31,691 nt of DNA, taken from IMG/VR virus record IMGVR_UViG_2778261559_000026. One strand, 5' to 3'. A program made the position numbers. Shown piece after piece: positions 982-31,691 of the stretch. Positions within the stretch are counted from its first letter, which is position 1. The number at the start of each line of letters is the position of its first letter. The DNA comes from a virus (lineage: Duplodnaviria; Heunggongvirae; Uroviricota; Caudoviricetes).

Positions 982-3900
982 GTTAAATAGGCGAGTAATC
1001 TCCTGTTTAGGTTTCACTAATATCATGTACCCACAATAACAAGAGGGGTACAACAATGAACATCGGTAAAGCAATCATCAACTACGCAGCGCGTCGCAAC
1101 ATGGACATTACCTTGATTGACGATGAGACCGTGGCGTTCTGGGAAGCGGATAACGATTGTGAATGGATGTTCTCCTACATGATTGGTAATGATGGTTTCC
1201 TCCACTTTAAAGGCAATGTGTATCTGCCGCAGGATATTAAAGAAGAATTACCAGCGTGCATCGATACAGACAAGAAGCTGAAAGAAGTAATCAACTTTAT
1301 CGCTAAAGAGTTTATCAGCAAGAAGTAATGTCTAATTTGGCGGGTACTATTCCCGCCGATTTAAACGGAATACAGACAATGTTCAATATTATGATTCGTA
1401 AATTTGGTGAGATGACTTTCGAGAAAGCTGGTGTTGCTCGTACCGAAGAAGAAGCAATGGCCTTCGTTCTGGTAGCACTGAGATCATCACCTGAGATTAT
1501 CGACGCTGAATATGTTACGGCTGAGGGTGAGATTAAAGAGATTAAAGCGGTGGCTAAGGAATTAGGTGTTAAAGGTTTCCGTAAGCTGAGATTGACCCGT
1601 GAGACTTATGTAATTGGACAGCAAGGACAATACCTAGATGAGAATACCGTGATTGTTCTACTGAATAAGATTACCCGCTACGGTTGGAAGATTGAGCAAT
1701 ATAAAACGTGTTTCGAATTATACGAAAAAGGTTTGCTGGATACTCTGACCATCGTTCGCGCTTAATTAATTTCTAATTTGGTGGGTGTAATTCCCACCGC
1801 TTTTTAAACTGGAGAATCAAACATGTTAGCTTTTATCTCATTCGTGGGAGGTAGTCTCACAACTATGATTAGTCTTTCTTATCTTGTCGTTAGTATGGGG
1901 TGAGCAATGAAACAATTTCATGATGGCATTTCATCTAAGACATTCAAGAAAGAATATTCGCTGAGTATTAACTGGATTGATTTGATTGGTGCGGTTGTGT
2001 TTGGTCTGATTATTAGCATTAACTTTTAACGATATAAATATATCGTAATTCAAACAACAAGAGGAAATTCTACTATGAAAAAGATTATCGCTGGCATCGT
2101 TCTTACTATGGGTTTGGTTGGTACTGCTAATGCTAATACCTATTATGTGTGTAATTCCTACTTCGAACATAAAGGAGATGATACACACTACCTTCGTGAT
2201 GGCGACCGTTATTATCATGCACCGTCTGGCAAATACCGTGGTTTTATCGGTGTGAAAGTTCGCGTGAATGATGATAATAGTCAATTTGCTTTCAACGATC
2301 CGGTATATGATAAGACAATCAAAAGTCCTAAATTAAAAGAAGATAAGAACGAGAAAGAAGAATATTATGGTTCCGAAGATGGTAAATCCTACATCAAGTA
2401 TCTGCATTCTGTTGATGGCGCGCCTATATTTGATGTTAAAAAAGGTGATACGTCTTATTCCCTGATTAGCTGCCGTGAAATTCTTTAATCTTTAATCACC
2501 TAGCCCCTATCGTTATAATACGCGGTAGGGGCGTTTTTGTTTGGAAATGGTATGAAAACTAAACTGTATTCGTATATTCGCTTCTCGTCTATGCGTCAGA
2601 ATGATGGTTCGAGTTATGAACGACAAATCAGGATGGCTAGAGAGATTGCGGTAAAGTATGACCTTGAACTGGTAAATGATTATCAGGATCTGGGTGTATC
2701 TGCGTTTAAGGGTGCTAACTCCAAAACAGGGGCGCTATCTCGTTTCCTTGATGCAATAGGTAGATCCGTTCCTGTTGGTAGCTGGCTATTCATCGAAAAC
2801 TTGGACCGTTTATCCCGTGCCGATATTGTCAGTGCGCAGGAGTTATTCCTTTCAATCATCCGTAGGGGGATAACCATTGTTACTGGCATGGATAACAAGA
2901 TCTACTCGCTGGATACTGTTACCGCTAACCCGATGGACCTGATGTTCTCCATCCTTTTATTCATCCGTGGTAATGAGGAAAGCCAGACTAAGCGCAATCG
3001 TACTAACTCAAGCGCACTGATTAAGATTAAAGCTCATCAAGAAAATCCACAAAATCCGGCTGTTGCAATCGAGGAAATTGGAAAGAATATGTGGTGGACT
3101 GATACCACATCTGGTTATGTGCTTCCTCATCCGGTCTTCTTCCCTATTGTTCAGGAAGTTGTGGAATTACGCAGGAATGGACGGTCAACCTCCGAGATAC
3201 TGGATCACCTTAACGCGACATACACACCACCACCAGCCGCAAGTCACAAGAGGCATTCAAACTGGTCACGGGCAATGATTGAAAGGTTGTTCCATACCCG
3301 CGCTTTGATTGGTATCAAGGAAATCTCTGTAGATGGCGTTAAGTATGAGTTAAAGGATTATTATCCTCGTGTGCTAGATGACGCTGAGTTTTATCACCTT
3401 AAGAAAAGCATTGGTGTTAGAGCATGTAACTTTGGAGACAAAGAAGAAGCTAAACCTATTCCCTTGCTTAGTGGTGCTGGTCTATTGAAATGTGAACATT
3501 GCGGTTCCGCTATGGTTAAGGTGAAAGGAACAAACAGACGGCCTAACCAATATCGTTATTCATGCGATGCAATGCGCTCTAGTCGTATTGAATGTGTGCA
3601 TACAAACTGGAGTTTTCGCGGCGACCAATTAGAGAAAGCTGTATTGCAATTGCTGGCTGATAAAATCTGGATTGCTGAAGATAAGGCTAATCCGGTTCCG
3701 GCTTTGAAAGTACAGATTGATGAAATATCACGCAAGATTGATAACCTGATTACCCTTTCTGCTATGACAGGAGCAACGAAGGAGCTAGCCGATCAGATTA
3801 CTACCCTCAATAGCGAGCGTGAAACACACTTCTGGATTCTGGTTAACCAATTCCACCCATTCGGAACGAGCAATAATACCGAAAGCACAAACGCGGTAAT

Positions 3901-30900: not shown

Positions 30901-31691
30901 TAACGTTTATAAATCACCACTCAAACCAGCTAAAGAAAATCCAAACGCAATGGAGGGTAAATCCAAACAGGATACTATTGGACGTGTTAACACTTATAAC
31001 ATCTGGGTAAGCAAAAAAGGTGACATGCGTCTTGAAGTTATTGAACCAAAATATGATTCTGAATATAAACACACTCAATTTGCATGTGACATGGTAGACG
31101 CAGAGTAAGAGGTGAAATGATGCAATTCAATAGCATGAAGATTACTCAAAAATGGTGGGATGCGATGAAAGCTAACCACCAGAACGATATTAATTAAGTA
31201 ACATTTTAGATATACAGCACCCAGCTAACAGATCACCTTTTATGGATTTCATTATAACCCCTTTGATCTGGAAACTATGTTAATTAGTTGATTTCTAAGC
31301 CTTGTCCTTGTGATGGGGCTTTTTATTGCAAAATTTTTAGTTATTTTGGGTTGACTACATTCGGGTTGCCAATTCGCCTGGCTAACTCTTGCTGAGTGAT
31401 TTCTGACTGTAAAAAAGCATTTAACAGCAATACTTTAGAGGCGACGCTCAAAGGTACTTCAATAAAGTGATCATGACTATTTAATGGCGAAGGTAACGGG
31501 ATAAGCTCGTTATCTTCAAAATAAAAATCAAATGCGGTCAGTAAAGCATCTTTTGCCGCTTCCATCGCTTCAGCGACAGTTTCGCCCTGCGTCAACGCTT
31601 CAGGGATATCCACAAAAGAAACCATATAACCGCCTTCCGGCGCGGGTGTAAGAGTGACGGGATAACGCATAATTTCGACTGTCCCTCGCAT

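Follow-up and report, generated by a model that had tools for sequence, protein, structure and literature searches.

The cryptic prophages Rac, DLP12, e14 and Qin of Escherichia coli K-12 are immobilised by deletions. Iteron-type origins, among them those of lambda, P1, pSC101 and F, share an architecture in which direct repeats in helical phase lie beside an AT-rich region, immunity determinants usually occupy the most variable slot, and the Peptidase_M15_3 endolysins are metallopeptidase lysins of the phage T5 type. The element described here is a prophage of the Caudoviricetes carried in a stretch of 31,691 nucleotides (IMG/VR record IMGVR_UViG_2778261559_000026; the whole stretch is referred to as the window), where it is inserted within the E. 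coli gene hicB, from ~1013 to ~31362. A previous examination made without database searches (the sequence-only reading) had described it as structurally complete though lacking a recognisable endolysin, repressor or replication gene, and had proposed that these functions are encoded in unfamiliar forms or that the element is defective, helper-dependent or released without lysis. Taking the deletion and the candidate origin and initiator described below together, we consider it quite probable that this element arose through the recent disabling of a member of an uncultured, otherwise complete family of temperate siphoviruses of Escherichia.

A deletion between the integrase and tail-tip genes

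All 34 open reading frames (ORFs) translated from the window were scanned against Pfam and PHROGs, and those left unmatched were rescanned one by one against Pfam (E<=1), NCBIfam and PADLOC. The Pfam and PHROGs scans revealed no standard lysis, immunity or replication genes among the window's hypothetical proteins, in agreement with the sequence-only reading. Its description of the element as structurally complete does not hold, as two genes that are full length in relatives are truncated and overlap on opposite strands. The large serine recombinase gene (2552–3949, + strand), which includes Resolvase, Recombinase and Zn_ribbon_recom domains, encodes 465 amino acids (aa), made up of native residues 1–425 of the 559 aa proteins of EC416 and DEC5A followed by 40 codons of antisense tail-tip DNA, and the break falls within the C-terminal coiled-coil/zinc-ribbon region. 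The gpJ-like tail-tip gene (3785–5584, − strand; phrog_31 'central tail fiber J', Phage-tail_3 and fn3) has an ORF of 599 aa that retains, by length comparison, native residues 1–585 of the 1248 found in DEC5A, so that the whole distal half is gone. The overlap spans a junction at 3827/3828 (3825–3830), which was located by blastn against two relatives (L001 and L019) and by alignment of the junction itself.

In the RefSeq annotation of EC416 the same segment holds a 559 aa recombinase, a 'D-Ala-D-Ala carboxypeptidase family metallohydrolase' and a 1258 aa tail-tip protein, and in blastn comparisons position 3827 of the window joins EC416 position 4371 to 9344. The closest intact relative, the prophage of the O55:H7 strain DEC5A, is 99.2 % identical over window positions 3828–24150. 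Window 1–3827 and 3828–24150 align with DEC5A 54–3881 and 8818–29136, respectively, with 98–99 % identity, and exactly 4,936 bp of DEC5A DNA is missing. Both parental sequences have the 3 bp ACT at the junction, and a junction with 3 bp of microhomology is typical of a deletion formed by illegitimate recombination. A single event of this kind fused the coiled-coil region of the integrase gene to the middle of the tail-tip gene.

If the missing segment were an artefact of assembly or scaffolding, the true element would be intact, and we consider this extremely improbable. The idea came up because two long ORFs meet at the junction, and no observation favours it. The 599 aa product is found beside the 465 aa recombinase in eight contigs from independent assemblies and different read sets, the longest of 221 kb, and an IMG/VR record that is 100 % identical to the window has the same fusion products. 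The junction is a clean 3 bp microhomology with no collapsible repeats. Hence, the deletion is real and inherited. It is also rare, as at least 80 % of the deleted segment, including the M15 gene, is kept in 49 of the 57 complete genomes that carry the family, and the junction is spanned by not one of the 5,426 complete genomes of E. coli. The late ORFs other than the truncated ones are equal in length to those of DEC5A, with 99.2 % DNA identity, so either the damage occurred recently or selection still acts on what is left.

The deletion explains the missing endolysin. In relatives, the deleted DNA encodes a 117 aa Peptidase_M15_3 protein (8.8e-28) that also matches phrog_894 'endolysin' (1.7e-45), together with four further small proteins, one of which (92 aa) has an N-terminal transmembrane helix and a coiled coil. 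No lysozyme, amidase, transglycosylase or peptidase endolysin was detected among the 34 ORFs of the window in any of the scans, as the sequence-only reading had noted. A divergent lysin elsewhere in the window was considered and rejected, as a tblastn search of the window with the five deleted-segment proteins found no remnant (best E=0.84). Neither a holin nor a spanin was identified by profile in the lysis cassette of the relatives, where only the 92 aa protein with its transmembrane domain and coiled coil lies nearby. Hence, for lysis, the proposal that the element is defective stands, and those of an unfamiliar lysis protein and of release without lysis fall, since the endolysin is of a known kind in intact relatives and is deleted here. 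In some relatives (e.g. CFSAN061761, ETEC1738, UTAK-14 and ES2) the interval from the integrase to the tail tip also contains a gene of the DEAD/DEAH-box helicase family, insertion sequences or GIY-YIG genes, and it seems to be a cargo hotspot besides being the site of the lysis cassette.

The window thus has no full-length recombinase, no lysis cassette and no complete tail tip, and essential genes have been lost relative to an intact relative that is 99 % identical. The same deletion that cut the integrase and tail-tip genes also removed the intervening lysis cassette (the M15 endolysin and its neighbours). By analogy with large serine integrases that have been studied, a recombinase interrupted within its coiled coil should be inactive, and to judge from its gene content this copy is most probably unable to excise, to lyse its host cell or to build a tail capable of adsorption. 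The missing endolysin is no sign of exotic lysis or release, and the copy should be annotated as a defective prophage. More generally, when genes are absent from a prophage, close relatives should be checked before the absence is interpreted.

The window begins with 822 bases from the 3′ part of E. coli ydcR and ends with 350 bases from the 5′ part of hicB. Window 1–3000 has matches in 5,412 of the 5,426 complete E. coli genomes, via ydcR, and coverage of at least 80 % in only 22. The boundaries given by the sequence-only reading (1015–31357) were essentially right, as hicB is split at ~1012 and ~31362. On the left (attL) side, a 3′ fragment of hicB lies at 897–1012 (− strand; codons KPKQEITRLF...LVMV*), identified by translation and from the partial hicB annotated by RefSeq in relatives, and on the right, 31341–31691 (− strand) comprises the 5′ part of hicB and eight phage-derived codons, again supported by translation and by annotation in relatives. 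On translation, the HicB frame is normal to ...QQELARRIG, after which the sequence is foreign. The gene is therefore interrupted after codon ~108, and the N-terminal part is kept and is lengthened by the eight codons, while the portion of the HicB antitoxin that is cut away is presumably the C-terminal DNA-binding part. The adjoining hicA is intact in relatives, and ycdX is likewise disrupted by other members of the family. A search for a long direct repeat flanking the element found none at its ends, which fits insertion by the large serine recombinase encoded at 2552–3949. The G+C content is ~41 % in the element and 50 % in the flank.

Prophages of this family, inserted in hicB or ycdX, are present in 58 of the 5,426 complete E. 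coli genomes (~1 %), and homologues of the family's proteins are on record from Escherichia albertii, Escherichia marmotae and Shigella. Intact members are ~35 kb and carry a large serine integrase. A megablast search for cultured phage relatives yielded only a 63 bp match, the best TerL match among cultured phages is 43 % identical and comes from a 141 kb phage, and no description of the family was found in the literature on prophages inserted in hicB or ycdX. All of the IMG/VR copies checked are chromosomal proviruses and none is a free genome. One metagenome-derived IMG/VR contig of ~35 kb was considered as a possible free phage, but it ends in hicB and is a provirus.

The lack of cultured relatives, the finding of chromosomal proviruses only and the fact that a replication protein can be recognised in no member would all suit a family without replication of its own, relying, in the manner of a satellite or gene transfer agent, on a helper phage or on passive replication with the chromosome. 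This we regard as very unlikely. Intact members encode an integrase, TerS and TerL, a portal, a protease-capsid protein, a complete tail and an endolysin, which is the opposite of satellite content, and the window itself has the packaging, head and tail gene set that distinguishes it from satellites of the P4 or PICI/SaPI type. The use of at least two insertion sites, the occurrence in several Escherichia species and the high mosaicism point to active horizontal spread, and the iteron array described below would be hard to explain if the element conducted no DNA transaction of its own. The helper-dependence put forward by the sequence-only reading is thus without support.

Iterons and an orphan protein in the early region

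No helicase, primase or polymerase was found by profile among the 34 ORFs, as claimed previously, nor was a Rep protein. In EC416, DEC5A and eleven other relatives, the early region is annotated only as 'hypothetical protein' and 'Rha family transcriptional regulator', and Pfam and PHROGs scans of the alternative early cassettes found in relatives produced no repressor or replication match. Hence, that no repressor or replication gene can be recognised is not peculiar to this copy but is a trait of the whole family, the early region of which is without database matches. In every relative, the leftward operon (p155, p51 and the Rha-like gene) is separated from the rightward operon (p59 and p318) by a gap of 1.3 kb that includes no conserved ORF.

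This gap contains the one feature of the window's sequence that points to a replication function, which the sequence-only reading missed. Eight direct copies of TTTCAGGGGCAAAA-like units, mostly 21–22 bp apart, form an iteron array at 26711–26886 (+ strand) that is a candidate origin or binding array. There are five perfect copies of CAGGGGCAA in the 31.7 kb window, all of them within the array, and none of 100 shuffles reached this count. The array is followed directly by a 174 bp stretch of 72 % A+T (26887–27060), a candidate unwinding region that is conserved between the two iteron types described below, and then by a conserved sigma-70-like promoter (TTGACA-17-TATGCT; 27081–27109, + strand) that drives p59–p318, the −35 element of which lies within the perfect palindrome TTGACAtgTGTCAA, a candidate operator. 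A divergent relative from a Logan assembly (L015) has the same promoter arrangement with TATAAT. The window therefore includes more than the minimum of three direct repeats, ~17–22 bp apart in helical phase, expected of an iteron-type origin and, as judged from composition, the adjacent AT-rich region. Replication would start at the array and AT-rich stretch (26711–27060) in the noncoding gap.

The iterons are of two kinds. Among 13 members of the family, seven, including the one in the window, have type A (TTCAGGGGCAA) and six have type B (TAGTGTAGGTT), and the two sequences are unrelated. The slot downstream of p59 is occupied either by a protein of 313–318 aa (91–98 % identical among type A members), represented here by p318, or by a protein of 331–351 aa together with an 80 aa ORF, and no homology was detectable between p318 and the type B protein of 333 aa (BLASTP E=19). 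Type A iterons are found with the p318 type of protein in 7/7 cases and type B iterons with the 333 aa type in 6/6. In addition, type A iterons are located ~0.9 kb upstream of the gene for all 15 of 15 further type A proteins from IMG/VR, and the type A array is conserved in 22 type A relatives. Between the two variable blocks, the AT-rich stretch, promoter, leader and p59 are 91–98 % identical across types A and B, and the similarity stops only where the variable gene starts, at its start codon. That non-homologous blocks are matched across ~860 bp of freely recombining shared DNA argues for a functional coupling of iterons and protein. Iteron type does not go with any particular type of p59, p85, Rha-like protein or p155, each of which assorts independently, and these proteins were rejected as iteron binders. 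The possibility that the iterons are binding sites for terminase (cosB/pac) was also rejected, as TerS is 97 % identical across both iteron types.

The p318 gene (27748–28704, + strand) encodes an orphan protein with an N-terminal alpha/beta and beta-rich domain, a coiled coil of variable repeat number and an acidic tail. A phmmer search of 1.8 billion cluster representatives returned 13 hits, among which, beyond fragments and the close E. coli cluster, the genuine relatives are two (48 and 34 % identity); the remaining matches, to repetitive BACON/T9SS or coiled-coil proteins, are spurious. No homologues were found among PDB sequences or, using tblastn, in 72,556 plasmids and 50,697 phage records, and scanning a single genome from each species turned up no relative. 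The type B protein similarly has no match in PDB sequences or plasmids. A 63 bp tandem duplication (copies 96 % identical) at 28346–28470 lies in the part of p318 encoding the coiled coil, and one, two or four copies are found in p318 homologues, so that coiled-coil length differs between otherwise near-identical proteins.

In L015, a protein 48 % identical to p318 is accompanied by eight GAGGGGCAAAAAT repeats that keep the GGGGCAAAA core. Three perfect DnaA boxes (TTATCCACA) are also present there within 170 bp (9690–9860), in the 300 bp before the gene for the p318 homologue. They lie in an AT-rich insert between the p59 and p318 homologues that is absent from the E. coli members, including the window. 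The window itself contains no perfect TTATCCACA, and sites with one mismatch occur at chance level.

From its position and the co-variation, p318 is rather likely to bind the iterons, and whether it is also the replication initiator we would put at slightly below an even chance. In that role, it would act like lambda O or plasmid Rep proteins, binding the iterons and bringing in the host replisome. There is no neighbouring gene for a Rep- or O-type (winged-helix) initiator in the window, p318 resembles neither O, Rep_3/RepA nor any other winged-helix initiator in sequence or in fold, and the P-like helicase loader that lambda possesses was not found here. Though the association of iterons and protein gives a one-sided Fisher p of 5.8e-4 when relatedness is ignored, the true support is lower because there are only two types and the members share ancestry.

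The lack of a Rep-like fold in p318 also suits a different interpretation, in which the iterons and p318 constitute a module for transcription control or immunity, with p318 a repressor or activator acting on a multi-site operator and the two types representing two immunity types. Co-variation of binding site and protein in a mosaic background is what immunity regions show, the array lies 200–370 bp upstream of the conserved rightward promoter, and there is no other recognisable repressor candidate. However, eight repeats in the same orientation, about two helical turns apart and with an AT-rich stretch, are typical of origins, not of operators, and p318 is in the rightward operon beside a Cro-sized protein that is helix-turn-helix (HTH)-like. 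The divergent relative has its three perfect DnaA boxes in this very module, and the most variable, immunity-like slot is that of the Rha/Ant-like gene, while the p318 slot has only two types. A control module therefore appears unlikely.

Within the AT-rich noncoding DNA of the gap, at 26160–26640, there is also a series of short, GC-rich hairpins with triloops (GAA, AAA, GCA and TTC), and in 13 relatives the stems are conserved and the loops variable. An exact 20 nt repeat, CAGTCGGGCAAAGCCCTCCT, is found at 26170 and 26558. If this stretch encoded a primer-type or regulatory RNA, for which there are precedents in ColE1-type origins, extrachromosomal mycobacterial prophages, P4 CI and P1 c4, then replication and/or immunity could be RNA-based, which would account for no protein being recognised. 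The many hairpins with their conserved stems, the conservation of a 1.3 kb gap without a conserved ORF, and the location of the hairpins upstream of the operon whose last gene is Ant/Rha-like are all compatible with this, and RNA-based origins are reported for some mycobacterial prophages that lack repA (PMC7157519). However, the hairpin region matches no Rfam family at threshold, RNAalifold energies are equal on both strands and no clear compensatory double changes were found. An RNA would also leave the co-variation of iterons and protein unexplained, and we regard this explanation as improbable, more so than a control module.

An origin served by a protein of unfamiliar form is, on these comparisons, the better-supported reading for replication, and for immunity too the 'unfamiliar forms' suggested by the sequence-only reading would be the best reading, given the iterons and AT-rich region, the orphan protein and the lack of CI or Cro. 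A more far-reaching version is possible though doubtful, namely that p318 and the 333 aa protein represent two structurally unrelated and previously unrecognised families of iteron-binding initiator without the winged-helix Rep fold, exchanged together with their iterons, and that immunity is of a non-CI kind based on the Rha/Ant-like protein, small Hin-like HTH proteins or structured RNA. If true, this would define an early-region architecture new to the temperate E. coli phages.

Immunity candidates and other genes

Profile scans of the window and of the family members examined identified no CI/Cro-type repressor pair, consistent with the sequence-only reading, and no member of the XRE/HTH_3, CI, Cro or peptidase S24 families was found using Pfam, PHROGs or NCBIfam. 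A divergent promoter region with one palindrome is present without an identifiable repressor. The only regulatory match in the window is a Rha/Ant-like DNA-binding protein (24416–25315, − strand; phrog_63 5.7e-15), with Phage_pRha matched by the versions in relatives. This slot is the most variable of the family, with eight clusters at 80 % identity among 13 elements, and the protein is a candidate immunity or antirepressor determinant. Immunity would lie with this protein and/or with the small HTH-like paralogues p59, p85 and p200.

The p59 gene (27454–27633, + strand) lies between the iterons and p318, and p200 (23250–23852) and the gene for p85, of 74 aa (23888–24112), both on the + strand, are divergent from TerL and have no family match. 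Alignment shows that p59 and p85 are paralogous. Both have (G)RPxxF in the N-terminal part and, after it, an HTH-like pattern, which we take to resemble the C-terminal HTH of Hin and resolvases, and p200 has two similar motifs at its C-terminus, as judged by eye. The best PDB match of a p59/p85 profile, to a SorC HTH, was not significant (E=0.64), and p200, p145 and the Rha-like protein had no PDB match. Completing the leftward operon are p51 (25348–25503) and p155 (25617–26084), both on the − strand. The latter consists of an alpha/beta domain of Rossmann/receiver-like type and a C-terminal tail that is acidic and conserved, and was considered as a replication protein resembling single-stranded DNA-binding protein on account of this tail; the idea was rejected, as the modelled Rossmann/receiver-like fold is generic and lacks a Walker motif. 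The p85 and Rha-like genes have convergent terminators, and between these (24146–24385) there are three copies of a composite repeat of 64–94 bp, each with two hairpins (GCTC/CCTC/GCGC-AAAACT-... and GTCCA-GATT-TGGAC/ATTCA-AACT-TGAAT/ATCCA-AATC-TGGAT) in which the differences between stems are paired. The corresponding stretch of DEC5A is only 41 bp long.

The late operon (5584–23163, − strand) appears intact, judging from Pfam and PHROGs matches and from ORF lengths equal to those of DEC5A. Its head and packaging genes encode TerL (gpA ATPase and nuclease), a portal of the lambda family, a fusion of an S78 protease with an HK97-type capsid protein, and head-tail connectors. The tail genes encode a tail tube, a gpT/chaperone-like pair, an 809 aa tape measure, a pb9-like distal tail protein, a baseplate hub and a DUF6950 protein, and a 1142 aa fibre carries an S74 chaperone domain. 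A GIY-YIG/NUMOD3 homing endonuclease gene (6050–6823, − strand; NUMOD3 3.1e-13, phrog_314, PADLOC HEase) lies between the DUF6950 and baseplate-hub genes. It is present in DEC5A and absent from the otherwise collinear EC416, and thus behaves as a mobile insertion in the tail operon; the GIY-YIG genes of other relatives are instead in the lysis-adjacent segment. This gene was the only anti-phage defence content reported by PADLOC. ARAGORN called a 91 nt tRNA-Glu at 16414–16504 (+ strand), antisense inside a connector gene, where no Rfam tRNA was found at the gathering threshold, and this call is most likely a false positive.

The TerS gene (29415–29969, − strand; phrog_57 2.5e-10) is separated by ~6 kb from that for TerL, in a separate leftward unit, and the early region and candidate origin lie between them (23163–29969), an arrangement that is unusual for a packaging system of the gpA/Nu1 type. 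Directly downstream of TerS, two ORFs (28988–29394, − strand) encode the small membrane proteins TM59 (29215–29394; one transmembrane domain) and TM57 (28988–29161; two transmembrane domains and a charged C-terminus), which are intact in most relatives and are without RefSeq annotation. Their size and topology are holin-like, but they match no family and were not called holins. A + strand ORF that overlaps them (28886–29065) is broken by stop codons in relatives and does not represent a gene. At the left end, p90 (1056–1328), p145 (1328–1765) and p137 (2075–2488; secreted or lipoprotein-like), all on the + strand, have PHROGs matches labelled 'unknown function' (phrog_6147 and phrog_14908) and no match in Pfam, NCBIfam, PADLOC or PDB. 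The right end encodes a secreted LprI/DUF1311-like protein (30329–31108, + strand; phrog_14799 1.6e-109, with a weak LprI match and this RefSeq name in relatives), likely to be the product of an accessory 'moron' gene.

Comparison with known systems

The candidate origin shares with the iteron-type theta origins (lambda ori/O, P1 oriR/RepA, pSC101, F and R6K) direct repeats about two helical turns apart, an AT-rich stretch and a nearby gene of matching type; DnaA boxes are present in one divergent relative, L015. It differs from lambda, where the iterons are inside the gene, in that they are located ~860 bp upstream of the candidate gene with another gene between, and from the plasmid iteron systems in that p318 has no plasmid homologues. 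The leftward operon that ends in an Ant/Rha-like protein, with structured noncoding DNA before it, recalls P1 immI (c4 RNA-icd-ant) and P22 immI. This resemblance is positional only, as there is no c4/sar-like RNA family and no repressor resembling C1, C2, Mnt or Arc.

Comparison with relatives has thus exposed a prophage family with a functionally unannotated early region, yet with an iteron array that tracks an orphan protein. The exchangeable iteron/orphan-protein cassettes may represent a new initiator family and offer a starting point for finding the family's repressor, and the early region that contains them is the only part of the element worth experimental follow-up.

For the functions that were lost, the counterparts are familiar. 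The 117 aa lysin of the relatives, with PF08291 over its full length, a phrog_894 match and a location at the end of the late operon, is an endolysin of the Peptidase_M15_3 kind. The recombinase has the Resolvase, recombinase and zinc-ribbon order of the phiC31/Bxb1/TP901-1-type integrases, as well as their insertion into a host gene without a long direct repeat, and unlike them is cut, in this copy, after residue 425 of 559. Like the cryptic E. coli prophages, the element has lost genes for excision, lysis and adsorption by deletion while many phage genes are intact. It differs from those of K-12 in being much younger and less decayed, with a single deletion, and in having the backbone of an uncultured family rather than a lambdoid one.

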